From: Escherichia coli
GTDB taxonomy: Bacteria; Pseudomonadota; Gammaproteobacteria; Enterobacterales; Enterobacteriaceae
Reading direction: 5' to 3' (one strand)
DNA: 64,000 nt
NCBI RefSeq assembly: GCF_044324875.1
Contig: NZ_CP172187.1
Below are positions 3,014-58,425 of this stretch, one piece after another (positions within the stretch are counted from its first letter, which is position 1; each line of letters opens with the position of its first letter). The position numbers were made by a program, and so were the translations under genes. The notes beneath the pieces were generated by a model, which saw only the letters and a list, made by a program, of their open reading frames with translations, was not told the origin of the DNA and did not search any database.

Positions 3014-3376
<363 letters not shown>

Positions 3377-3406
3377 TCAACATAGGTCATCCTAAAATAC
3401 ATTAAA

Positions 3407-3487
3407 GATAACAAGATAACAAGATAACAAGATAACAAGATAACAAGATAACAAGGTGTTATCTTGTTATCTCAAGGTGTTATCTTT
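3407..3487. repeat. iteron array: six direct copies of GATAACAA followed by three inverted copies (TGTTATC)
   Basis: Read directly at 3407-3454 (direct) and 3455-3487 (inverted); immediately downstream of the parG-like gene. Confidence 0.85.
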
Positions 3488-3782
3488 GTTTTACTTCTGC
3501 TATCAATCGTGATACCTCTGTTTTTGATAGTGTTTTAAGTGCTTCTACCGCCGCCCTGACAACATCAGAACGATTCACTCTGCCTTTACCTGAAACCATC
3601 TCAGCCGTTATAAGGGCATCAATGTCTTTTAGGTTTTCTTCAAAAAAAGAAATACTCACTGGTTTTGCTTTGCTTACAACCGATGATTTATCTGATGACT
3701 TTTTGGTATTATCAAGGCCAGCCGTGCCACCGTTAATAAATGCTGCCTCGTCACGAGGTGAAGTGTTTGCTCTATTTCTCAC
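3480..3782 (-). CDS. ParG-like ribbon-helix-helix centromere-binding partition protein
   Basis: 100 aa with flexible basic N-tail and RHH-like C-terminus; 4-bp overlap with the upstream ParA-family gene, typical of type Ib par operons. Confidence 0.6.
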   Translation of the reverse strand: MRNRANTSPRDEAAFINGGTAGLDNTKKSSDKSSVVSKAKPVSISFFEENLKDIDALITAEMVSGKGRVNRSDVVRAAVEALKTLSKTEVSRLIAEVKQR

Positions 3783-4405
3783 AGAATAACCTCTTTCACT
3801 AACGCTTCGATTTCTTGCTGGGCTTTATCATTTTGCGTTTCAAAAATTGTCATTGATTCGGCCCAAGCATCTCGATGTGCTTTACGATCACATACCCGGG
3901 AGTTTGCCAGATGCATTTCAGGGTAATCCTTAAGTACTTCAGCTGCCTCATTGGCTTCATTAACAAACATATTTGTGGGCGTCATGTTTAAAACGAGATA
4001 TCCCCGAACATCCTCATTAAAATCTTTTGCTGCTGTAAAAACGGAGCATGTATGAGGCACAACATCCAGGTCCATCTGAGATGGGCGCAAAGGAGAAATG
4101 AATACATCTGCGGCCATCAATCCACTACGCATTTCTGCGCTATCACGGCCAGCACAGTCTGCAATAACAAAATCATAGGATTTTTCGTGTTCCTTTAACA
4201 TGGCTTTGATGTTACCTGTCGCGCCTGTAACCGGAATATGAGGGAGATCTTCAGGGCGATTGTTGTACCAGGTTAATACTGATTTCTGGTCATCTGCGTC
4301 GACAATAATCACTCTATTGCCTAGTGACATCAGATACGCAGCTATAGATACCGCCAGTGTACTTTTACCTACCCCACCCTTTTGACTACCTAATACTATT
4401 ATCAT
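3779..4405 (-). CDS. parA: ParA/ParF-family partition ATPase (small, type Ib)
   Basis: 208 aa; deviant Walker A KGGVGKST at N-terminus; GAGG RBS upstream of ATG. Confidence 0.85.
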   Translation of the reverse strand: MIIVLGSQKGGVGKSTLAVSIAAYLMSLGNRVIIVDADDQKSVLTWYNNRPEDLPHIPVTGATGNIKAMLKEHEKSYDFVIADCAGRDSAEMRSGLMAADVFISPLRPSQMDLDVVPHTCSVFTAAKDFNEDVRGYLVLNMTPTNMFVNEANEAAEVLKDYPEMHLANSRVCDRKAHRDAWAESMTIFETQNDKAQQEIEALVKEVIL

Positions 4406-4413
4406 TATAGCCT

Positions 4414-4500
4414 CATATTAAGTTGTTAAGTTAACAACTTAATATTGCCATCTGAACGCGAATCATGCAATTATTTTTGTTATATTAACAACTTAACAAG
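4414..4500. promoter_or_regulatory. palindromic operator-like sites upstream of the par operon (TTAAGTTGTT-AAGTT-AACAACTTAA and repeated AACAACTTAA motifs)
   Basis: Perfect inverted repeat read at 4414-4443 and related motifs to about 4500, in the par promoter region. Confidence 0.5.
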
Positions 4501-4532
4501 TTATTAAGTATTTGATTTATAGATTAATTAAT

Positions 4533-4580
4533 ATAACAAGATAACAAGATAACAAGATAACAAGATAACAAGATAACAAT
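4533..4580. repeat. iteron array: six tandem copies of ATAACAAG (same 8-bp unit as 3407-3487)
   Basis: Read directly; upstream of the par operon, so the par cassette is bracketed by the same iteron. Confidence 0.85.
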
Positions 4581-6593: not shown

Positions 6594-6862
6594 TATTCTA
6601 ATAACTGAATCCACACACAGTCAAATGTCATTATTGTGACTAAAAAACGCTCAATTCTCTGAGGGTGTGGCTGTATGCCTGCTGTGGACTGCTGTGTCCA
6701 GCTTATCCACAGCATTTTGCGCACGGTTCTGTGAATAAAATACCTGGTTACCCAGGCCGTGCCGGCACGTTAACCGGGCTGCATCCAATGCAAGTGTGTC
6801 GCTGTCGCCGGCATCCTCACCAGGTCACTCAGCAGTCAGGGAGAAAAATGGCGGATGAAGTA

Positions 6863-7221
6863 TGACGGAGACGGTCGGGCAAGTGCCCGTTTCTTTTCCG
6901 ACAAAGGATGTCGCCGTGCTCCTCTTTTTACTGCGCCGGCTGACGCGGCGCGGCATAAACGCTGCCTGTGGTCAGTGTCCCGCGTCCGGCGGGCACGGGA
7001 CGGGCGCTTTTACCGCTCCCGGCTGGCGTCGGTGACAGTGTACGCCAGCCCGTCGCCCTTTTCTGATGAACGCCCTTCAAGCCGCTTTCGCGGCATAGCC
7101 TTGCCGTCAAAAAGACGACGGCTGCGGTATTCCACGGTCGGCCTGACCCGTTACCGGACGCGGTGAACAGCCCACAGGCAGCGGGGAACGGGCACCACAG
7201 GGGGGCCCTCCCGGTGCTCCT
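6863..7221 (+). repeat. leading-region repeat family A, copy 1 (~360 bp, GC-rich, contains long imperfect inverted repeat arms 6954-6989 / 7154-7184)
   Basis: Near-identical to 8168-8526; ends at the RBS of the downstream gene. Confidence 0.85.
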
Positions 7222-7236
7222 GTGAGGAGAATTCCC

Positions 7237-8163
7237 ATGCCAAACTGGTGCTCAAATCGTATGTATTTTTCTGGTGAACCAGCACAGATCGCTGAGATTA
7301 AACGACTGGCCAGCGGTGCAGTCACACCGCTTTATCGCCGCGCCACAGATGAAGGTATTCAGCTGTTTCTGGCCGGTAGTGCCGGACTTCTGCAGACCAC
7401 TGAAGATGTGCGGTTTGAACCATGCCCCGGACTGACGGCTGCCGGACGTGGTGTTGTATCGCCGGAGAATATCGCGTTCACCCGCTGGCTGACACACCTG
7501 CAGAACGGTGTGCTACTGGATGAAAAAAACTGCCTGATGCTGCATGAACTCTGGCTGCAGAGTGGTACTGGCCAGCGTCGCTGGGAAGGATTACCGGATG
7601 AGGTCAGGGAAAGCATCACCGTGCATTTCACCGCCAAAAGAGGTAACTGGTGTGGCTTCTGGAGTAACGAGGATGTATCGGTGTGGTGGAACCGTCTGTG
7701 TGACAATGTACTGCCGGAAAAAACCATGCCGTTTGACCTGCTGACGGTTCTGCCCACCCGCCTGGATGTTGAAGTGAATGGCTTTAACGGTGGTGTTCTG
7801 AACGGTGTTCCTTCTGCGTATCACTGGTATACGGAACAGTATGGCGTGAAGTGGCCTGTGGGGTATGAGGTGAATATCAGCAGTCAGGGAGACAACTTCA
7901 TTCAGGTTGATTTCGACACGCCGTGGTGTCAGCCGGAAAGCGACGTTATTGCAGAATTAAGCCGCCGTTTCAGTTGCACACTGGAGCACTGGTATGCCGA
8001 GCAGGGCTGCAATTTCTGTGGCTGGCAGCGATATGAGCGTGGAGAGCTTGTTGATGTCCTGTGGGGGGAATTGGAATGGTCTTCCCCGACAGATGACGAT
8101 GAGCTGCCGGAAGTCACCGGACCTGCGTGGATTGTCGACAAGGTGGCGCATTACGGTGGATGA
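7237..8163 (+). CDS. hypothetical Cys-rich leading-region protein (family not assigned)
   Basis: 308 aa from ATG preceded by GAGGAG RBS (MPNWCSNRMYF...); multiple Cys/Trp-rich motifs incl. CNFCGW. Confidence 0.7.
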   Translation: MPNWCSNRMYFSGEPAQIAEIKRLASGAVTPLYRRATDEGIQLFLAGSAGLLQTTEDVRFEPCPGLTAAGRGVVSPENIAFTRWLTHLQNGVLLDEKNCLMLHELWLQSGTGQRRWEGLPDEVRESITVHFTAKRGNWCGFWSNEDVSVWWNRLCDNVLPEKTMPFDLLTVLPTRLDVEVNGFNGGVLNGVPSAYHWYTEQYGVKWPVGYEVNISSQGDNFIQVDFDTPWCQPESDVIAELSRRFSCTLEHWYAEQGCNFCGWQRYERGELVDVLWGELEWSSPTDDDELPEVTGPAWIVDKVAHYGG

Positions 8164-8167
8164 ATTC

Positions 8168-8526
8168 TGACGGAGACGGGCGGGCAACCGCCCGTTTCTT
8201 TTCCGACAAAGGATGTCGCCGTGCTCCTCTTTTTACTGCGCCGGCTGACGCGGCGCGGCATAAACGCTGCCTGTGGTCAGTGTCCCGCGTCCGGCGGGCA
8301 CGGGACGGGCGCTTTTACCGCTCCCGGCTGGCACCGGTGACAGTGTACGCCAGCCCGTCGCCCTTTTCTGATGAACGCCCTTCAAGCCGCTTTCGCGGCA
8401 TAGCCTTGCCGTCAAAAAGACGACGGCTGCGGTATTCCACGGTCGGCCTGACCCGTTACCGGACGCGGTGAACAGCCCACAGGCAGCGGGGAACGGGCAC
8501 CACAGGGGTGCCCTCCCGGTGCCTTC
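8168..8526 (+). repeat. leading-region repeat family A, copy 2
   Basis: Near-identical to 6863-7221; ends at RBS of the methyltransferase gene. Confidence 0.85.
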
Positions 8527-16187: not shown

Positions 16188-19100
16188 ATGGCAGTTCGTG
16201 GCATTAACAAGGTCATTCTTGTCGGTGTGCGCCGTTGAAGCGCGGTGTTTTATGGAGTGTTGCCTGAAAAGCAACATGGCTTAGTGGTATAGCCATTGCA
16301 TACTGTGGTTAGCCTTGCTTGGTAACAGGCTCGGAGATCCTGAAAAGGAGAGGTGAACATAGCATCCACAGAAAAGGGTGGTGAATATGGAAATCGTTAT
16401 AAGTATCACCATTCAATGCAAGATGTATATGGATAAACTGGGTTTGTTGAAGTCGAGATCTATGTGGGAAACAGGAAACCAATAACGCAGAACGATTGAA
16501 GCGTTATTCCCGTACTAGCACAAGAAATCCGTCCGACGTTGATTGTGACCACTCTAACGGGCCAGCTATTGATGAAATAGTTAAACGATCGAAAGACATC
16601 CTAAGTACATCGCATCTCCACACCGTGAAACTACGGGACTACCTAAACTGGATTTATACCCAGCATGGTAGCGGAGTCTCCATAGTACTCAAGGTCGGCC
16701 TGTAATGGGTTCCGGCAGTCCGCATTATACGGAAGCAGCAAAGGTATAAATCAACCGGAAGGAAGATGAAAGCCTCACAGTGCTGCGGGGAAGGGAGACA
16801 GTTGTTAGATACATCAATCTCTAAGAGGAGGGTTAGCCAATGCTGCCTGATGAACTTGAGAAAAGATTAGATGGAATTGAGGATGCTTCAAAAAAAGGGT
16901 ATCCAGTACGTAATCTATACAAAATTGCGTGTGAGCCCGGACTGTGGCTGCAAGCCTACGTGAATATACGGGCCAATGCAGGTGCACTGACTCAAGGTGT
17001 ATCAACAGATACCATTGATGGCTTTTCTATCGAAAGAGCAGAGAAGCTGGCAAAAACATTGCGGAGTAGAGAATACGTAGCGAAACCTGTACGCAGAGTT
17101 CAGATCCCAAAAAAGGACGGAAAAACCAGACCGCTGGGGATTCCAGGTGGAGACGATAAACTGGCGCAAGAAGTAGCAAGAATTATTCTGGAAAGGGTTT
17201 ATGAACCAGTATTCTCTGAACACTCTCATGGATTCAGACCAAAACGTTCGTGTGAAACTGCGCTCAGATCTATTCGTCCAGTCTGGAACGGAGTTAAATG
17301 GATCGTGGATGTTGATATCAAAGGTTTCTTTGACAATATCCCCCACAAACTATTGCTGAATACACTGGCAGAGAAAATTAAGGATAAGAATTTCCTGAAA
17401 TTAATCGAACAGTGGCTGAAGGCAGGATATGTGGACAATTGGAAATACCATCGCTCATATTCTGGCACGCCACAAGGTGGGATAATTTCTCCCTTACTGG
17501 CAAATATATACCTCGACAAACTGGACCGTTTTGTAGAACAGAATTTAATTCCTGCATATACAAGCGGTACAAAACGAAGAGCGAATCCAGATATGAACAG
17601 GCTGGCCCATAAGATTCATAAACTACGAAAGAAAGTAGACGGTATGGCAACTGATTCTGAATCAGAAAAAGAAGCCATAAAGAAAGAAATTGAACGACTG
17701 CTTGAAGAAAAACGTTCTATACCATCTCAGGTCATGAACGATCCAAACTTCAGGCGTATGTACTATGTTCGATATGCTGATGACTTCGTAATCGGTGTCA
17801 TCGGCTCGAAGAAAGATGCTGAACATATATCAAGACAGGTCAGAAACTTTATTACTACTTCACTGGGATTGGAAGTTAATGAAGCAAAGACCAGGATCCG
17901 CCATATCTCAGAAGGAGTTAATTTTTTAGGCTATGAAATCAGACAGGCAGATGCAAAGAAATTGCTGAAGCAGAAAATGCAAGGGCGGCACGCTCTCCGG
18001 AGATCCACCACAGGAATTGTGCAGCTCTTCGTTCCTGACAATATAGCCGCTAAATTTTGTCACCAAAAGAAATATGGCTGTTATGAGAATGTGAAGGCTG
18101 TACATCGTTCAAGTCTACAAAATCTCAGTGAAGCTGAAATTGTTCTGACTTTCAACGCGGAAATGCGCGGATTGGCGAACTACTACAGTCTGGCGCTGGA
18201 CATGAAATATAAATTATCAAAATTATATTTCATATGGCAAATAAGCCTTTTTAAGACCCTGGCGAATAAACGACGTAGTTCAGTGAATAAAGTCGCCAAA
18301 TCGCTACGGCAAAATAATGGAGATCTGGCTATTACCGTTCAGGCCAAAAATGGATCCCGAAAGATTGAGGTTTTCAAACTCAAACATGTCAATCGCAACC
18401 GAACAACGATTGTCGATACGGAACCGAGAACCGCACATATCACAACCCGCACAACAGAGATCATGCGTCGATTAGGGGCAAGGATCTGCGAGTATTGTGC
18501 GAAGACTGGGCGCTGCGAAGTACATCATGTCAGAAAGCTAAAAGACCTGAAGAAAGGTCGTAAGGCCGGATATAAACCCAGCTTGTGGCAACTAATGATG
18601 ATCGCACGCCGCCGGAAAACGATGATTTTGTGCGCAAGTTGCCACGACAAGTTACATAGCGGAAAACTACCCGATTTGAGACAGGAAAAGGGAAGAATAC
18701 TCCTGCAACCACCTGTCTCAAGCGGGGATTCTGCTAAATGAGTTTATCCCCAATAAGCTAGCAATGGAGAGCCGTATGCACTGAAAGGTGCACGTACGGT
18801 TCGGAGGGGGGGTAACGGTGATCTAACTCAAGATAAGCAGGACATATTCGCCATTTATCTTGAAAGACCACACGTACCCTACCCTACCGTCTGGGAAAAG
18901 ATCCGGAAGTCCGTTACATCCCAAACGGGGGCGCAGTGGCAAACCTGCAGGTGGCCACGTCAGAAAGCTGGCGCGACAAACAGACGGGGGAGATACGGGA
19001 GCAGACAGAATGGCATCGCGTGGTGCTGTTCGGCAAGCTCGCGGAAGTGGCTGGTGAGTATCTGCGCAAGGGCGCGCAGGTCTACATCGAAGGTCAGCTT

Positions 19101-44922: not shown

Positions 44923-45270
44923 ATGAGTGAAGATTATTTGAAACTGTTTACAGGTGTTGTTCTGTTAATATTTGTCATTATTGCCGGTTATTTCTTTTCT
45001 GAGCGTAATGACAGGAAAATGTTTCTCCTGGGCTCACTGGTTTTCCTTGTTATTAATATCGCGTGTTTATATGTGCTGACTGCCAGTCTCTGGTTTCTGT
45101 GTGGTGCAATTATGAATCAGGGCGCAGCAATGGTTGTTCCAATGGTTATTGGCTCATTACCGAACGTTACGAGCTTCGACGGGTTCAGAAGAATATTTAT
45201 CTGTATTATGTTGTCATCAGTATGGTCCGGAGTGATGTGGTTTTTTATAAGGGGGCTTATGACAGGCTAA
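44923..45270 (+). CDS. trbA: TrbA
   Basis: 115 aa hydrophobic; position. Confidence 0.7.
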   Translation: MSEDYLKLFTGVVLLIFVIIAGYFFSERNDRKMFLLGSLVFLVINIACLYVLTASLWFLCGAIMNQGAAMVVPMVIGSLPNVTSFDGFRRIFICIMLSSVWSGVMWFFIRGLMTG

Positions 45271-45271
45271 G

Positions 45272-45586
45272 TCATATAAAACGGTCATAAAAACCATGCA
45301 AAATAATGAGGTTGATTACTGAAGACCATATGATAAACCATACCGCAATCCAGTGGCTTCTGAATAGCTCACAAAAATAAATATAGATAATTGAAAATAA
45401 CCATAATACAACGATGCCTGCTGCGATACTTAATAAACTTATTACAAGATAGTCAGGGAAGGCATTGACCGGTAATGAATGTGATGCTGCATATATCAGC
45501 GCAATAATTGCCGCATTTCCCAGTAACGACTCTCTTATTATGTTTCTGATTATTTCCAGTTTTTCTTTAAAAGATCGCTTTTCCAT
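45272..45586 (-). CDS. artA: ArtA (anti-sense-oriented small membrane protein)
   Basis: 104 aa on the opposite strand between trbA and traQ, as in F. Confidence 0.65.
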   Translation of the reverse strand: MEKRSFKEKLEIIRNIIRESLLGNAAIIALIYAASHSLPVNAFPDYLVISLLSIAAGIVVLWLFSIIYIYFCELFRSHWIAVWFIIWSSVINLIILHGFYDRFI

Positions 45587-45666
45587 TTGTACCTCTGATT
45601 AATATCACACAAACGCGAATATTACAGACATGAATACTCTCATGTAAATAATAACCGGAGTTTAAC

Positions 45667-45951
45667 ATGATAAGTAAACGCAGATTCTCTTTACCCCGGC
45701 TTGATATTACGGGAATGTGGGTATTTTCCCTGGGTGTCTGGTTTCATATCGTCGCCCGTCTTGTTTACAGCAAACCCTGGATGGCTTTTTTTCTGGCGGA
45801 GCTGATTGCGGCCATCCTTGTGCTGTTCGGCGCATACCAGGTGCTGGATGCATGGATTGCCCGTGTCAGCCGGGAAGAGCGTGAGGCACTGGAAGCCAGG
45901 CAACAGGCCATGATGGCAGAGCAGCAGGAGGGCGGACATGTCTCTCACTAA
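45667..45951 (+). CDS. traQ: TraQ (pilin chaperone)
   Basis: 94 aa; position. Confidence 0.8.
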   Translation: MISKRRFSLPRLDITGMWVFSLGVWFHIVARLVYSKPWMAFFLAELIAAILVLFGAYQVLDAWIARVSREEREALEARQQAMMAEQQEGGHVSH

Positions 45952-46483
45952 ATTACTGCCGGTCATTTTGTTGATGATGGCCACAGGTGTGCAGGCCTCC
46001 ACCCGGGATGAAATTGAACGACTCTGGAATCCGCAGGGTATGGCCGCGCAGCCTGCACAACCGGCAGCAGGCACGTCAGCCAGGACAGAAAAGCCGGCCC
46101 CCCGCTGGTTCCGCCTCAGCAACGGCAGGCAGGTTAACCTGGCCGACTGGAAGGTGGTGCTGTTTATGCAGGGGCATTGCCCTTACTGTCACCAGTTTGA
46201 CCCGGTACTGAAACAGCTGGCACAGCAGTACGGCTTTTCCGTTTTTCCCTACACCCTGGATGGTCAGGGTGATACCGCCTTTCCAGAGGCATTGCCGGTG
46301 CCACCGGACGTGATGCAGACCTTCTTCCCGAATATCCCGGTGGCCACACCGACCACCTTCCTGGTCAACGTCAACACGCTGGAAGCATTACCGCTTTTAC
46401 AGGGGGCAACGGATGCCGCCGGTTTTATGGCGCGGATGGATACCGTTCTGCAGATGTACGGAGGAAAAAAGGGTGCGAAATAA
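45938..46483 (+). CDS. trbB: TrbB (thioredoxin-like, CPYC)
   Basis: 181 aa; CPYC motif. Confidence 0.85.
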   Translation: MSLTKLLPVILLMMATGVQASTRDEIERLWNPQGMAAQPAQPAAGTSARTEKPAPRWFRLSNGRQVNLADWKVVLFMQGHCPYCHQFDPVLKQLAQQYGFSVFPYTLDGQGDTAFPEALPVPPDVMQTFFPNIPVATPTTFLVNVNTLEALPLLQGATDAAGFMARMDTVLQMYGGKKGAK

Positions 46484-46787
46484 GCAGGTGGTGTTACTCA
46501 TTGCCGGAATATCCGGCATCGCGACGGGAATAATCGTCAGCCTGAATATCACCTTTATTCGTCAGGGACTTTTTTATCCCGCCAGCCCTGTAGAAATTGT
46601 CGTTTCGCTGTGTCTTACCTTTTCTGTTTCTGTTGTGTTTTTTGTGGGGGCAATTGTGGGATGGATTTTGGTGTCTGAAATATATTACAGCCGCATGACC
46701 GGTCTGAATGAATCATCAGTAATTTCAGAGGAAACTTATAATGACAGAAAACAAAAAGAATCAGGAATTCAAAATAAGAAAAATTAG
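46473..46787 (+). CDS. trbJ: TrbJ (GTG start)
   Basis: Position and hydrophobic profile. Confidence 0.6.
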   Translation: MRNKQVVLLIAGISGIATGIIVSLNITFIRQGLFYPASPVEIVVSLCLTFSVSVVFFVGAIVGWILVSEIYYSRMTGLNESSVISEETYNDRKQKESGIQNKKN

Positions 46788-47133
46788 ACGGAATATTGAG
46801 TATAGTTTCAGAGGTTCTGACAGATATTTTGATTTGTTTTTTGTTTTCCTTGTTGCCGGAATTGTTTTATGGGCAGTTATGCACGTTATTTTCGATGTCT
46901 GTATTGATTCGTGGATGGCCGACCCGAAATTACTTAATTTCCAGTATATGTGGAATGTTCTGATGAAAGTCATTCCGTTTACGTTATGGGCGCTGGCAGC
47001 AGGGTTTCTTGTTACATTTTTTCTGTCCCCAATGTGCGAATTAATATTCGGAAATATCGGGATATTCCTGCTGAAATGTCGTATGCGCCGGGAGAACAAA
47101 TTAAGGGAGGGCAAGAATGATGCCACGCATTAA
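46741..47133 (+). CDS. trbF: TrbF
   Basis: 130 aa; position. Confidence 0.65.
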   Translation: MTENKKNQEFKIRKIRRNIEYSFRGSDRYFDLFFVFLVAGIVLWAVMHVIFDVCIDSWMADPKLLNFQYMWNVLMKVIPFTLWALAAGFLVTFFLSPMCELIFGNIGIFLLKCRMRRENKLREGKNDATH

Positions 47134-48493
47134 ACCTCTTCTGGTTCTTTGTGCCGCTTTACTGACGGTCACACCCGCAGCGTCAGCGGATGTGAACAGC
47201 GACATGAATCAGTTCTTTAATAAGCTGGGATTTGCTTCCAATACCACACAGCCGGGCGTCTGGCAGGGGCAGGCCGCCGGCTATGCTTACGGTGGCTCCC
47301 TGTATGCCCGTACTCAGGTCAAAAATGTTCAGCTGATTTCCATGACGCTGCCGGATATCAATGCCGGATGTGGTGGCATCGACGCCTACCTCGGTTCGTT
47401 CAGTTTTATTAATGGCGAGCAGTTGCAGCGTTTTGTTAAGCAGATTATGAGCAATGCTGCCGGTTACTTTTTTGACCTTGCCCTGCAGACAACGGTGCCG
47501 GAAATAAAAACCGCAAAAGACTTCGTACAGAAAATGGCAAGCGACATTAACAGTATGAACCTCAGTTCCTGCCAGGCTGCACAGGGGATTATCGGCGGGC
47601 TTTTCCCCCGGACGCAGGTGTCCCAGCAGAAAGTCTGTCAGGACATTGCCGGTGAGAGCAATATTTTTGCTGACTGGGCGGCTTCCCGGCAGGGATGTAC
47701 CGTTGGCGGGAAATCTGACAGCGTCAGGGATAAAGCCAGCGACAAGGATAAGGAGCGGGTGACCAAAAACATCAACATCATGTGGAATGCGCTTTCCAAA
47801 AACAGAATGTTTGACGGCAACAAAGAGCTGAAAGAGTTTGTGATGACGCTGACCGGCTCACTGGTGTTTGGTCCCAACGGCGAAATCACACCGCTGTCGG
47901 CCAGAACCACTGACCGCTCAATTATCCGGGCCATGATGGAAGGCGGCACAGCAAAAATTTATCACTGCAACGATTCGGACAAGTGTCTGAAGGTGGTGGC
48001 GGATGCAAATGTGACCATCGCCCGGGATAAAGCCCTGAAGTCACAGATTACAAAACTGCTCACCAGTATTCAGAATAAAGCGGTCAGCGACACGCCTCTG
48101 GATGACAGGGAAAAAGGCTTCATTTCCAGCACCACCATCCCCGTCTTTAAATATCTGATTGACCCGCAGATGCTCGGTGTTTCCAACAGTATGATTTACC
48201 AGCTGACGGACTATATCGGTTACGACATCCTGCTGCAGTACATTCAGGAGCTGATACAGCAGGCCCGGGCGATGGTGGCCACAGGAAATTATGACGAAGC
48301 AGTTATCGAACATATTAACGACAACATGAATGATGCCACCCAGCAGATTGCGGCGTTTCAGTCACAGGTGCAGGTACAGCAGGATGCGCTGCTGGTTGTC
48401 GATCGTCAGATGAGCTACATGCGTCAGCAGCTTTCCGCCCGCATGCTCAGTCGTTACCAGAACAACTATCACTTCGGAGGGAGCACGCTGTGA
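47117..48493 (+). CDS. traH: TraH
   Basis: 458 aa; signal peptide; synteny. Confidence 0.9.
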   Translation: MMPRIKPLLVLCAALLTVTPAASADVNSDMNQFFNKLGFASNTTQPGVWQGQAAGYAYGGSLYARTQVKNVQLISMTLPDINAGCGGIDAYLGSFSFINGEQLQRFVKQIMSNAAGYFFDLALQTTVPEIKTAKDFVQKMASDINSMNLSSCQAAQGIIGGLFPRTQVSQQKVCQDIAGESNIFADWAASRQGCTVGGKSDSVRDKASDKDKERVTKNINIMWNALSKNRMFDGNKELKEFVMTLTGSLVFGPNGEITPLSARTTDRSIIRAMMEGGTAKIYHCNDSDKCLKVVADANVTIARDKALKSQITKLLTSIQNKAVSDTPLDDREKGFISSTTIPVFKYLIDPQMLGVSNSMIYQLTDYIGYDILLQYIQELIQQARAMVATGNYDEAVIEHINDNMNDATQQIAAFQSQVQVQQDALLVVDRQMSYMRQQLSARMLSRYQNNYHFGGSTL

Positions 48494-51312
48494 ATGAAGT
48501 TTATGTGATTGCCGGTGGTGAGTGGTTGCGGAATAACCTGAATGCCATTGCCGCCTTTATGGGAACCAGAACGTGGGATTCCATTGAAAAAATTGCGCTC
48601 ACATTGTCTGTTCTCGCGGTGGCCGTAATGTGGGTACAGCGGCACAACGTGATGGATTTGCTGGGCTGGGTGGCCGTGTTTGTGCTTATCAGCCTGCTGG
48701 TTAATGTCCGTACATCGGTGCAGATTATTGATAACAGTGACCTGGTCAAAGTTCACCGGGTGGATAATGTGCCGGTCGGACTGGCGATGCCACTTTCACT
48801 GACGACCCGTATCGGGCATGCAATGGTGGCCAGTTACGAGATGATCTTCACGCAACCGGACAGTGTCACCTACAGCAAAACGGGGATGCTGTTTGGCGCA
48901 GAACTGGTATCAAAAAGCACCGACTTTTTGTCCCGTAATCCGGAAATCGCCAATCTTTTCCAGGATTATGTGCAGAACTGCGTGATGGGGGATATTTACC
49001 TGAACCACAAATATACGCTGGAGGAGCTGATGGCCTCCGCTGATCCCTACACGCTGATTTTTTCCCGCCCCAGCCCGCTGCGGGGCGTTTATGACAGCAA
49101 TAATAATTTCGTAACCTGTAAGGACGCTTCGGTTTCGCTGAAAGACAAGCTGAATCTGGACACACAGAGTGGCGGAAAAACCTGGCATTATTATGCCCAG
49201 CAGCTATTTGGCGGACGCCCTGATCCTAACCTGCTGTTCAGTACGCTGATTGGCGACAGTTACAGTTACTTCTATGGCTCAAGTAAATCAGCCAGCCAGA
49301 TCATCCGCCAGAATGTCACCATCAATGCGCTGAAGGAGGGGATCACCAGTTATGCCGCACGTAATGGTGATTCGGCCAGCCTGGTGAATCTGGCCACCAC
49401 GTCATCGATGGAGAAACAACGTCTGGCACATGTATCAATCGGTCATGTGGCGATGCGGACACTGCCCATGACGCAGACCATCCTGACGGGGATCGCCATC
49501 GGTATTTTCCCGCTCCTGGTACTGGCGGCTGTATTCAACAAACTGACGCTGTCCGTCCTGAAAGGCTATGTGTTTGCCCTGATGTGGTTGCAGTCATGGC
49601 CAATGTTGTACGCCATTCTGAACAGCGCCATGACATTTTATGCAAAGCAGAATGGTGCACCGGTGGTGCTCTCGGAAATTTCACAGATACAGCTGAAATA
49701 CTCCGATCTGGCTTCCACTGCCGGGTATCTTTCCATGATGATCCCGCCATTATCCTGGATGATGGTCAGGGGGCTCGGGGCAGGATTTTCCAGTGTGTAC
49801 AGCCATTTCGCTTCCTCTGCTATCAGCCCGACCGCCAGTGCAGCAGGCAGTGTGGTTGACGGTAATTACTCCTACGGCAACATGCAGACGGAGAACGTGA
49901 ACGGCTTCAGCTGGAGCACCAACAGCACCACGTCGTTTGGTCAGATGATGTACCAGACCGGCAGTGGCGCAACTGCCACACAGACCCGTGACGGTAATAT
50001 GGTGATGGATGCAAGCGGAGCGATGTCCCGGTTACCGGTCGGCATCAATGCAACGCGTCAGATTGCGGCGGCACAACAGGAAATGGCCCGGGAAGCATCG
50101 AACAGAGCAGAAAGTGCCCTGCATGGGTTCAGCAGCAGTATTGCCAGTGCCTGGAACACGCTCAGTCAGTTTGGTTCTAACCGGGGGAGCAGTGATTCTG
50201 TCACCGGTGGCGCTGACAGTACGATGAGCGCACAGGACTCCATGATGGCCAGCCGTATGCGCAGTGCAGTGGAAAGCTATGCGAAGGCGCATAATATCAG
50301 TAATGAGCAGGCGACTCAGGAACTGGCATCCAGAAGTACGAGAGCTTCTGCCGGGATGTATGGAGATGCTCATGCTGAATGGGGGGTTAAACCTAAAATT
50401 CTTGGTGTTGGTGGAGGATTAGGTGTTAAAGGTGGTGGTCGCGCTGGTATTGATTGGGAAGATAATGATGCGCATACGGCAAGTAGTAATACTCAGTCGA
50501 GCCATAATGCTCGTCATGATATCGATGCCAGAGCTACACAAGACTTTAAAGAGGCCAGCGATTACTTTACCAGTCGCAAGGTCAGTGAGTCCGGCAGCCA
50601 TACTGACAATAATGCTGATTCCCGTGTGGATCAGTTGTCTGCAGCCCTGAACTCAGCAAAACAGAGTTACGACCAGTTCACGACGAATATGACCCGCAGC
50701 CATGAATATGCTGAAATGGCATCCCGTACTGAAAGCATGAGTGGGCAGATGAGTGAAGACCTGTCGCAACAGTTTGCACAGTATGTGATGAAACACGCGC
50801 CGCAGGATGCCGAAGCTATTCTGACAAACACCAGTTCACCGGAGATTGCAGAACGCCGTCGGGCTATGGCGTGGTCTTTTGTTCAGGAACAGGTGCAGCC
50901 TGGTGTTGATAATGCCTGGCGTGAATCCCGTGGGGACATCGGTAAAGGAATGGAGAGCGTACCTTCGGGTGGTGGCAGCCAGGATATTATTGCTGATCAT
51001 CAGGGGCATCAGGCCATTATTGAGCAAAGAACGCAGGACAGTAATATCCGTAATGATGTAAAACATCAGGTTGATAATATGGTCACAGAATACCGAGGCA
51101 ATATCGGAGATACTCAGAGCAGCATACGTGGCGAAGAAAATATTGTAGGAAGACAGTATTCTGAACTACAAAATCACCATAAAACAGAGGCATTATCTCA
51201 GAATAATAAATATAATGAAGAAAAATCGGGTCAGGAAAGAATGCCCGGGGCTGACAGTCCACAGGAACTGATGAAAAGAGCAAAGGAGTATCAGGATAAG
51301 CACAAGCAATAA
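48490..51312 (+). CDS. traG: TraG (mating-pair stabilisation / entry exclusion determinant)
   Basis: 940 aa MNEVYVIAGGEWLRNNLNAIAAFMGT... Confidence 0.9.
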   Translation: MNEVYVIAGGEWLRNNLNAIAAFMGTRTWDSIEKIALTLSVLAVAVMWVQRHNVMDLLGWVAVFVLISLLVNVRTSVQIIDNSDLVKVHRVDNVPVGLAMPLSLTTRIGHAMVASYEMIFTQPDSVTYSKTGMLFGAELVSKSTDFLSRNPEIANLFQDYVQNCVMGDIYLNHKYTLEELMASADPYTLIFSRPSPLRGVYDSNNNFVTCKDASVSLKDKLNLDTQSGGKTWHYYAQQLFGGRPDPNLLFSTLIGDSYSYFYGSSKSASQIIRQNVTINALKEGITSYAARNGDSASLVNLATTSSMEKQRLAHVSIGHVAMRTLPMTQTILTGIAIGIFPLLVLAAVFNKLTLSVLKGYVFALMWLQSWPMLYAILNSAMTFYAKQNGAPVVLSEISQIQLKYSDLASTAGYLSMMIPPLSWMMVRGLGAGFSSVYSHFASSAISPTASAAGSVVDGNYSYGNMQTENVNGFSWSTNSTTSFGQMMYQTGSGATATQTRDGNMVMDASGAMSRLPVGINATRQIAAAQQEMAREASNRAESALHGFSSSIASAWNTLSQFGSNRGSSDSVTGGADSTMSAQDSMMASRMRSAVESYAKAHNISNEQATQELASRSTRASAGMYGDAHAEWGVKPKILGVGGGLGVKGGGRAGIDWEDNDAHTASSNTQSSHNARHDIDARATQDFKEASDYFTSRKVSESGSHTDNNADSRVDQLSAALNSAKQSYDQFTTNMTRSHEYAEMASRTESMSGQMSEDLSQQFAQYVMKHAPQDAEAILTNTSSPEIAERRRAMAWSFVQEQVQPGVDNAWRESRGDIGKGMESVPSGGGSQDIIADHQGHQAIIEQRTQDSNIRNDVKHQVDNMVTEYRGNIGDTQSSIRGEENIVGRQYSELQNHHKTEALSQNNKYNEEKSGQERMPGADSPQELMKRAKEYQDKHKQ

Positions 51313-56226: not shown

Positions 56227-58425
56227 ATGAGTTTTAACGCAAAGGATATGACCCAGGGCGGTCAGATTGCGTCCATGCGTATCCGCATGTTCAGCCAGAT
56301 CGCCAATATCATGCTTTACTGCCTGTTTATTTTTTTCTGGATACTCGTTGGTCTGGTTTTATGGGTAAAAATAAGCTGGCAGACGTTTGTGAACGGCTGT
56401 ATTTACTGGTGGTGTACCACGCTGGAAGGCATGCGGGATTTAATCAAGTCCCAGCCAGTATATGAGATTCAGTATTACGGCAAAACCTTCCGGATGAACG
56501 CTGCCCAGGTACTGCATGATAAATATATGATCTGGTGCGGTGAGCAGCTATGGTCCGCATTCGTTCTGGCGTCTGTCGTGGCCCTGGTTATTTGCCTGAT
56601 CACCTTCTTTGTTGTCTCCTGGATTCTGGGGCGTCAGGGTAAACAACAGAGCGAAAATGAAGTCACAGGTGGTCGTCAGCTGACAGACAATCCGAAAGAC
56701 GTTGCCCGGATGCTGAAAAAAGACGGCAAGGACTCCGATATCCGGATTGGCGACCTGCCGATTATCCGGGATTCCGAAATCCAGAACTTCTGTCTGCACG
56801 GCACGGTCGGGGCCGGTAAGTCGGAGGTTATCCGTCGTCTGGCCAACTACGCCCGTCAGCGCGGTGATATGGTGGTGATTTATGACCGTTCAGGGGAATT
56901 TGTTAAAAGTTACTATGATCCCTCCATCGATAAAATCCTGAATCCGCTGGATGCCCGCTGTGCCGCATGGGATTTGTGGAAGGAGTGCCTGACACAGCCG
57001 GATTTTGATAATACCGCAAATACTCTGATCCCTATGGGTACAAAAGAGGACCCGTTCTGGCAGGGTTCAGGACGTACCATTTTTGCGGAAGCGGCGTACC
57101 TGATGCGTAATGACCCCAACCGCAGCTACAGCAAACTGGTGGACACACTGCTTTCCATCAAAATTGAAAAACTGCGTACCTTCCTGCGTAATTCACCGGC
57201 AGCCAACCTGGTGGAAGAGAAAATTGAGAAAACGGCGATTTCCATCCGTGCTGTGCTGACCAACTACGTGAAAGCCATCCGTTACCTGCAGGGGATTGAG
57301 CATAACGGTGAGTCTTTTACCATCCGTGACTGGATGCGTGGTGTCCGGGAAGATCAGAAAAACGGCTGGCTGTTTATCTCGTCGAATGCCGACACCCATG
57401 CCTCCCTGAAGCCGGTGATCTCCATGTGGCTGTCCATTGCCATTCGTGGTCTGCTGGCAATGGGAGAAAACCGTAACCGTCGTGTGTGGTTTTTCTGTGA
57501 CGAGTTACCCACGTTACACAAACTGCCGGACCTGGTGGAGATCCTGCCGGAAGCCCGTAAGTTCGGAGGCTGTTATGTGTTTGGTATCCAGTCCTATGCC
57601 CAGCTGGAAGATATCTACGGTGAGAAAGCGGCGGCCACGCTGTTTGACGTCATGAACACCCGTGCTTTTTTCCGTTCCCCGAGCCATAAGATTGCAGAGT
57701 TCGCTGCCGGTGAGATTGGTGAGAAAGAGCACCTGAAAGCCAGCGAGCAGTATTCCTACGGTGCTGACCCGGTACGTGACGGGGTATCGACCGGTAAGGA
57801 TATGGAGCGTCAGACACTGGTCAGTTATTCCGACATTCAGTCTCTGCCGGATCTGACCTGCTATGTCACTCTGCCCGGACCGTATCCGGCAGTAAAACTC
57901 TCCCTGAAATATCAGGCACGACCGAAGGTCGCTCCGGAGTTTATTCCGCGTGACATCAACCCGGAAATGGAGAACCGTCTGAGTGCCGTACTTGCTGCAA
58001 GGGAAGCAGAAGGTCGCCAGATGGCCAGCCTCTTCGAACCGGAGGTTGCCTCCGGAGAAGGCGTGACTCAGGCTGAACAGCCACAACAGCCACAACAGCC
58101 ACAACAGCCACAACAGCCACAACAGCCACAACAGCCACAACAGCCAGTGTCTTCTGTCATGAATGATAAGAAGTCAGATGCAGGTGTGAGTGTTCCGGCA
58201 GGGGGGATCGAGCAGGAGCTGAAAATGAAACCGGAAGAAGAGATGGAACAGCAACTGCCACCCGGGATCAGTGAATCCGGTGAAGTGGTGGATATGGCCG
58301 CTTATGAGGCATGGCAACAGGAAAATCATCCGGACATCCAGCAGCAGATGCAGCGTCGTGAAGAGGTGAACATTAATGTGCACCGGGAGCGCGGGGAGGA
58401 TGTTGAGCCGGGAGATGATTTCTGA
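56227..58425 (+). CDS. traD: TraD coupling protein (T4CP)
   Basis: 732 aa from [13 protein letters not shown]...; Walker A GTVGAGKS; C-terminal QPQ repeats. Confidence 0.9.
58078..58146 (+). repeat. in-frame 9-bp tandem repeat (CAGCCACAA)x~7.7 encoding (QPQ)n in TraD C-terminus
   Basis: Read directly. Confidence 0.9.

Follow-up and report, generated by a model that had tools for sequence, protein, structure and literature searches.

How does a partition operon make use of copies of one octamer on both of its flanks and of a perfect palindrome in its promoter? The question is raised by a locus in a 64-kb window of Escherichia coli DNA, the window being the whole stretch that was analyzed. An earlier note described the locus as a parA/parG-like operon bracketed by iteron arrays and judged its arrangement unusual. 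We conclude with high confidence that the locus, taken together with the mechanism and operator steps set out below, is the type Ib ParABS plasmid-partition locus that is also present on the IncI1 plasmid pESBL. The dual-array partition cassette is real and has been known on pESBL since 2020; as a discovery, the present analysis adds nothing to that characterization. The part of the locus without earlier study is the promoter palindrome, which is conserved and, judging from its sequence, is probably a site of ParB autoregulation. There is no evidence that contradicts the assignment to partition. The features are listed in Table 1.

Table 1. Positions of the features of the par locus and of other elements in the 64-kb window
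Feature	Position	Strand	Description
Downstream parS array	3407..3484	-	Tandem-repeat and inverted-repeat calls; corresponds to the 8-BS probe
parB (Hp7/ParB in pESBL)	3480..3782	-	100-aa centromere-binding protein
parA	3779..4405	-	208-aa deviant-Walker-A ATPase, type Ib
Ribosome-binding site GAGG	4411..4414	-	From sequence; conserved in alignment; 5 nt before the parA ATG
O1, proximal putative operator	4415..4445	.	Perfect 31-bp palindrome; inverted-repeat call
Putative extended -10, TGGCAATAT (TG-n-CAATAT)	4442..4450	-	Deduced; 17 bp after the -35
Putative -35 hexamer TTGCAT	4465..4470	-	Read from sequence
O2, distal putative operator	4477..4499	-	Deduced from sequence
Upstream parS array	4533..4579	-	Tandem-repeat calls; corresponds to the 7-DR probe
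F-type transfer functions, sok RNA and group II intron, together	27181-27290, 49209-49294, 58425-63695, 22997-23173, 18767-18887

The partition locus and its two proteins

The parA-parB DNA of the window, aligned with that of pESBL-EA11 (NC_018659), is 100% identical, with no variant column in either gene, and the locus is therefore already characterized rather than new. The two proteins, ParA (RefSeq WP_000587689.1) and ParB (WP_001245884.1), occur both on pESBL and on the plasmids matching the window, and they correspond to O3K_25822 (with an extended start) and O3K_25817 of pESBL, respectively. The pESBL locus was described by Poidevin et al. (Genes 2020, PMC7602700) in E. coli O104:H4. Tn-seq in pESBL identified a stability region of about 1 kb containing two open reading frames, those of ParA and of Hp7 (100 aa), and the ParA start was re-placed 93 bp upstream so that the Walker A motif is included. 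The par cassette of pESBL stabilizes an unstable mini-F, foci of GFP-ParB (GFP-Hp7) are seen only with pESBL in the cell, and plasmids that lack par drift to the cell poles. In EMSA, ParB shifts a probe of seven direct repeats (7-DR) and a probe of four plus four inverted repeats (8-BS) with comparable affinity, forming about one complex per unit, and the binding to single units appears to be weak (PMC7602700). The probe sequences in the supplement of that paper match the two arrays of the window, 7-DR the upstream and 8-BS the downstream one. The earlier proposal of a partition cassette in which octamer arrays act as centromeres thus holds, since identical proteins bind both arrays and the cassette stabilizes a plasmid. 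A literature search found no later work on the pESBL-type ParB.

ParA is a small (about 200 aa) deviant Walker-A protein, as is characteristic of type Ib ParABS systems. Its Walker A motif reads KGGVGKST, with KGGVGKS at residues 9-15. The domain matches of ParA are restricted to P-loop NTPase families (MipZ, AAA_31, and CbiA), and an N-terminal DNA-binding domain is lacking. The score of ParA against the ParA_partition family NF041546, 155.8 bits, lies under the family cut-off of 180. The nearest solved relatives are ParF of TP228 (4dzz, E 2.3e-14) and the TP228 ParA entry 5u1g, both matching over the full length with E of about 2e-14.

The second gene, parB, lies downstream of parA and overlaps it by 4 bp. 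The encoded small centromere-binding protein is unrelated to the HTH/CTPase ParB family, which together with the position of its gene is typical of type Ib systems. Searches with ParB returned no Pfam family above threshold, no NCBIfam family, and no ParB/Spo0J hit; the weak matches comprise a sub-threshold LisH and aCcr1 (RHH) at residues 66-82. Neither ParG (1p94) nor any ribbon-helix-helix (RHH) protein in the PDB matches ParB at E up to 10, whether searched with phmmer or with a 22-sequence profile against all PDB sequences. The AlphaFold2 model of ParB has a mean pLDDT of 75, with values of 81-95 across residues 41-100 and low confidence for residues 1-40. It contains an extended segment (residues 41-47) followed by three helices (48-64, 71-82, and 87-99). 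ParB thus models as an RHH-like C-terminal domain (residues 38-100) preceded by a disordered N-terminal tail. The alignment of 22 ParB homologs shows an invariant N-terminus, MRNR...E..FI.GG, and the invariant segments KAKPVS (38-43) and RVNRSD (68-73), so that the protein is composed of a conserved N-terminal tail (MRNRANTPPRDEAAFINGG), a variable linker, and the C-terminal domain. The name "ribbon-helix-helix domain-containing protein" is already given to some database copies, and the RefSeq label of ParB is still "hypothetical protein". The description of the protein as ParG-like is apt for the type of system and the predicted fold, as indicated by ParF being the nearest solved relative of ParA and by the RHH model, but not for the sequence, in which similarity to ParG is undetectable.

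In the mechanism that we propose, the small dimeric ParB occupies the 8-bp GATAACAA units of the two flanking arrays, as published for the identical proteins (PMC7602700). By analogy with the type Ib family, RHH dimers of ParB would insert a β-ribbon into the major groove every 8 bp, one dimer per unit, and coat the arrays, and ATP-bound ParA dimers would cover the nucleoid. ParB would contact ParA through its conserved, arginine-rich N-terminal tail (R2, R4, and R10) and trigger ATP hydrolysis. The ParB-coated plasmid would trail the receding ParA, and the sister copies would separate.

Octamer arrays, relatives, and neighborhood

The downstream array contains, on the plus strand, six exact direct GATAACAA units at 3407-3454 (TRF: 6.4 copies, 100% match) and three inverted units. 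The inverted units are located at 3456-3463 (GATAACAC), 3464-3471 (the only exact one), and 3477-3484 (GATAACAC), and the last of them overlaps the parB stop codon TAA at 3480-3482. Read along the coding strand, the array consists of the inverted boxes GATAACAC, GATAACAA, and GATAACAC, followed by six direct TTGTTATC units, which are oriented like those of the upstream array. The upstream array is positioned within the 195-bp gap between the stop of the impB/umuC-like gene (4601) and the parA start (4405). It is built of TATAACAA and five exact GATAACAA units, or of five ATAACAAG and one ATAACAAT in the register chosen in the earlier note; on the coding strand it reads as five TTGTTATC units and TTGTTATA. 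Both arrays are found where six upstream copies and six direct plus three inverted downstream copies had been reported, with the small corrections that two of the three inverted units are inexact and that the arrays end at 4579 (upstream) and 3484 (downstream). The exact octamer GATAACAA occurs 12 times in the 64 kb, against 1.68 expected, and none of 100 shuffles reaches 12. Tandem octamer pairs with at most two mismatches number 11, against 0.01 expected, and all of them are within the two arrays.

The locus is widespread. The 1.4-kb region is matched over 80% or more of its length by at least 1079 PLSDB plasmids, the majority of which come from Escherichia, Klebsiella, and Salmonella. A ParB homolog is detected by tblastn in 1495 PLSDB records. 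Its identity reaches at least 99% in 485 of them and is 80-90% in 770, largely from Klebsiella, while the most distant homologs fall under 60%. With so wide a distribution, correct annotation matters. The relatives that we compared in detail have ParB identities of 92, 82, 81, 68, and 60%. Arrays of the same octamer are present on both flanks in all of them; in the two most distant, from Pantoea (68%) and Enterobacter (60%), the arrays are degenerate. The Klebsiella relatives have 7-10 purely direct downstream units, with little or no inverted part. The number of upstream units is six in the window, seven in pESBL, and five in the IncK2 plasmid p4809.66.

Two further copies of the locus differ in their setting. 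The S. Infantis plasmid CP113985 encodes at 1640-2803 a ParB that is 91% identical, with no annotated parA and no upstream sequence that aligns with the family promoter. This locus, carried on large Infantis plasmids, may be degraded or rearranged. The conservation counts given below leave this relative out, as its upstream region is not alignable and its parA is not annotated. In Pantoea sp. BAV 3049 (NZ_WHOY01000031.1, 224-1183), near-identical parA and parB genes and the same palindrome are located on a contig recorded as 5.17 Mb, which suggests a chromosomal integration or an assembly join.

In the window, as in I-complex plasmids, impB is upstream of the par locus and the cargo downstream of it varies. 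A truncated resolvase gene (3014-3292, minus strand, 92 aa), encoding the C-terminal end of the catalytic domain and HTH_7, is located about 115 bp beyond the downstream array. It is followed by genes for a GntR-family regulator and a 465-aa PTS-like permease (546-2926). The sequence to the left of about 3340-3395 varies between plasmids, and the downstream array therefore marks a recombination boundary. On the other side, just past impCAB, two copies of a 300-nt direct repeat (6850-7149 and 8155-8454, 97% identical) surround a DUF1281 gene (7222-8163). Both copies have a high G+C content and, as single-stranded DNA, are moderately structured (z -2.5); they may be repeated single-strand elements of the leading region. 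The window also contains a group II intron, a sok antitoxin RNA, and F-type transfer functions, namely the traJ 5' UTR with FinP, antisense traG and traI RNAs, and a 1756-aa open reading frame of traI size. The par-impCAB module is matched best on I-complex plasmids (IncK2/Z and IncI1). Since these matches are combined with F-type transfer functions in the window, the par-impCAB module seems to have moved between plasmid backbones.

Among the determinants that keep I-complex plasmids stable, the par locus is one of the most important, and many Klebsiella F-type resistance plasmids carry a close relative of it. Knowledge of which array is needed for partition, of the mode of autoregulation, and of the role of the palindrome as an operator would help the design of plasmid-curing tools based on incompatibility.

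Promoter-flanking sites and rival readings

The perfect palindrome that the earlier note had placed in the promoter is present there as ATATTAAGTTGTTAA-g-TTAACAACTTAATAT, with arms of 15 bp around a single base (15+1+15, 100% complementary), and is unique in the 64-kb window. Its core, TTGTTAA-C-TTAACAA, is a convergent pair of variant centromere boxes. The first five bases of O1 overlap the -10 element; O1 also covers the expected start of transcription, and its other end reaches the ribosome-binding site. O2, which ends 6 bp upstream of the -35 hexamer, reads TTGTTAAG-TTGTTAAT-ATAACAA on the coding strand, that is, two direct variant boxes followed by a convergent exact box. The order on the coding strand is the upstream array, a 33-bp AT-rich spacer, O2, 6 bp, the -35, 17 bp, the -10, O1, GAGG, 5 nt, and the ATG. 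The last three of the 17 bp between the -35 and CAATAT are the TG of the extended -10 and one further base. The centers of O1 and O2 are 54 bp apart, or about five helical turns. Convergent box pairs (at most one mismatch per box relative to TTGTTAT, 1-bp gap) occur twice in the 64 kb, at O1 and at O2; 5000 dinucleotide-shuffled versions of the promoter region contained none. The promoter hexamers proposed here are weak matches to the consensus; a stringent sigma-70 consensus scan did not call this promoter, and the calls that it made were at chance level.

No other non-coding stretch of the par locus is as well conserved as the palindrome. Among six relatives (ParB 68-100% identical), 26 of the 31 columns of O1 are invariant, with a mean pairwise identity of 0.95. 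The extended -10 is invariant in eight of nine columns and the TTGCA of the -35 is conserved in the same six relatives, whereas the spacer between them has no invariant column among the 14 scored and an identity of 0.40. In the plasmid pB207_F, both O1 and O2 have arms that match the centromere heptamer exactly (TTGTTATCATAACAA at O2). In the Pantoea relative, the centromere arrays themselves hold TTAACAA boxes and a convergent TTGTTATC-TTAACAA step. A scan of about 100,000 genomes with the 19-mer of the palindrome core gave seven hits, four of them in Enterobacterales. In the two of these hits that we examined, from Pantoea and Erwinia dacicola, the palindrome is followed, at a distance of 13 and 15 bp, by the start codon of a parA belonging to the family. 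The three other hits (Flavobacteriia, Heyndrickxia, and Clostridia) are probably chance matches in AT-rich genomes. The pESBL paper makes no mention of a palindrome, an operator, or the promoter structure, and its EMSA probes exclude the palindrome region (PMC7602700). In a full-text literature search, the palindrome and array sequences were discussed in no paper.

We propose that O1 and O2 are putative ParB operators flanking the core promoter. ParB would autoregulate the operon by binding to O1, over the -10 and the transcription start, and to O2, just upstream of the -35. Somewhat in favor of this view, we lean toward O1 and O2 being a dedicated, conserved operator pair of variant boxes, the convergent geometry of which is absent from the arrays of this plasmid. 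A single RHH protein would then read three kinds of sites: the direct upstream array; the inverted-plus-direct downstream array, which may also be a terminator; and the two convergent pairs flanking the promoter. The box variant and the geometry would set partition apart from autoregulation. Counting against the operator function, a single position sets the boxes (TTGTTAA) apart from the centromere consensus (TTGTTAT), the right arm of the palindrome has an additional mismatch in pESBL, and the promoter hexamers are weak. Moreover, since ParB binds single units weakly in EMSA (PMC7602700), an operator of two boxes may be bound poorly.

It is also possible, though we consider it unlikely, that the upstream array acts as both centromere and operator, as does parC1 in pB171, and that the palindrome is bound by another factor of the host or plasmid, or by nothing. 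In pB171, regulation acts through the upstream array itself (cited in PMC7602700), the same paper leaves open what the corresponding array of pESBL does, and binding of ParB is proven for the array but inferred for the palindrome. However, the upstream array ends 62 bp upstream of the -35, so that occlusion of RNA polymerase would require spreading or looping. The strong conservation of the palindrome also speaks against the array being the operator, as does its construction from a centromere-type box, which is replaced by exact heptamers in pB207_F. In the genome-scan hits that we examined, the palindrome occurs only at the promoter of the par family, which argues against a site for a general host factor.

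The junction of inverted and direct units in the downstream array is predicted to form, as RNA, a long hairpin followed by a U-rich sequence (-31.4 kcal/mol, z -6.2), and it may, as a putative additional function, terminate the par operon. That the downstream repeats are a terminator only, with the upstream array as the sole working centromere, is improbable. The strong hairpin fits such a role and the shares of the two arrays in stability were not separated experimentally, but ParB binds the 8-BS junction probe with an affinity comparable to that for the upstream probe (PMC7602700). Furthermore, the purely direct downstream units of the Klebsiella relatives would form no terminator hairpin, and termination therefore cannot be the main role of the arrays.

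We give very little weight to the palindrome being an RNA hairpin in the 5' untranslated region of parA that controls translation or mRNA stability, rather than a DNA operator. Such a role would fit the position of the palindrome, which immediately precedes the ribosome-binding site, and the stability expected of a perfect 15-bp stem. With TGGCAATAT as the -10, however, transcription is predicted to start within the left arm, so that most of this arm would be absent from the RNA, which makes a role as a hairpin less likely. The variation of the palindrome is not compensatory, as pESBL, with one mismatch in the right arm, and pB207_F each alter one arm only, and the arms match a protein-binding box.

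Least credible is a role of the 8-bp repeats as replication iterons, recognized by a Rep initiator, instead of as centromeres: the term was used in the earlier note, and Klebsiella relatives have a RepB/RepA gene directly upstream of the upstream array, but no rep gene adjoins the locus in the window, pESBL, IncK2, or other I-complex plasmids, the arrays flank parAB in every relative examined regardless of the neighboring genes, and the binding of ParB to the repeats in vitro together with the stabilization of mini-F by the cassette alone refutes this reading in practice (PMC7602700). As the octamers accompany parAB, and not a rep gene, over differing backbones, "iteron" is a misnomer.

Comparison with known partition systems

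A 2023 paper states that parAB of R64 is 100% conserved in pESBL. We considered R64 (NC_005014) as a reference and rejected it, because its type Ib locus (45383-46422) is a different system, with a ParA that is 24% identical and a small protein without similarity; pESBL itself was therefore used. The R64 region 45200-48225 encodes a 214-aa ParA and a 102-aa partner, has GGATATC/GGGTATC-like repeats upstream of, between, and downstream of the genes, and continues directly with parM/parR. The R64 genes meant by the statement were not found in the part of pESBL that we searched (1-53.5 kb).

The window and pESBL share identical coding DNA for ParA (208 aa) and ParB (100 aa), the same GATAACAA octamer, arrays on both flanks, the inverted-plus-direct downstream layout, and the neighboring impCAB. 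They differ in the downstream array, which has six direct and three inverted units in the window but ten and five in pESBL, where some units are GATGACAA variants. The stretch from the upstream array to the parA start carries four substitutions, and one of these breaks the palindrome of pESBL. The flanking cargo is a TEM-1 gene and a putative Tn3 end in pESBL, and the resolvase fragment in the window. In pESBL-EA11 (NC_018659, about 49850-49990), the last downstream octamer is directly followed by GGGGTCTGACGCTCAGTGGAACGAAAACTCACGTTAAG, beside the TEM-1 gene. We take GGGGTCTGACGCTCAGTGGAACGAAAACTCACGTTAAG to resemble a Tn3-family terminal inverted repeat, in which case a transposon end abuts the centromere array.

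The ParF/ParG/parH system of TP228 resembles the par locus in its small ParA-type ATPase, ParF being the nearest solved relative of the window ParA, and in its small centromere-binding protein, which recognizes units every 8 bp and has the architecture predicted for the window ParB, a flexible N-terminal tail before an RHH-like C-terminal domain. ParG acts at OF as well as at parH (PMC3130281). By analogy, the partition sites and the operator sites of the window would be separate and read by one protein, a promoter operator being distinct from the centromere array. The two systems differ in that the window ParB has no detectable sequence similarity to ParG, and in that its box is TTGTTAT, as opposed to the ACTC tetramer with AT-rich spacers of TP228. 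The repeats are near-perfect in the window and degenerate in TP228, for which a single parH site of about 100 bp, and not a flanking pair, is described (PMC3130281).

Repeat arrays on both flanks of type Ib operons are present in pB171 and pSM19035 (PMC7602700). The dual arrangement is thus not unusual for type Ib systems; contrary to the initial impression, it has been published for this very locus and is conserved across the ParB family on Escherichia, Klebsiella, and Pantoea plasmids. In pSM19035, the RHH protein omega recognizes 7-bp heptads, either direct or inverted, within sites that double as operator and centromere. By their descriptions, par2 of pB171 (parC1/parC2) and delta/omega of pSM19035 are set apart from the window by other repeat sequences, repeat lengths, and proteins. 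A further difference is that the putative promoter-proximal sites in the window are distinct convergent pairs, located apart from the array.
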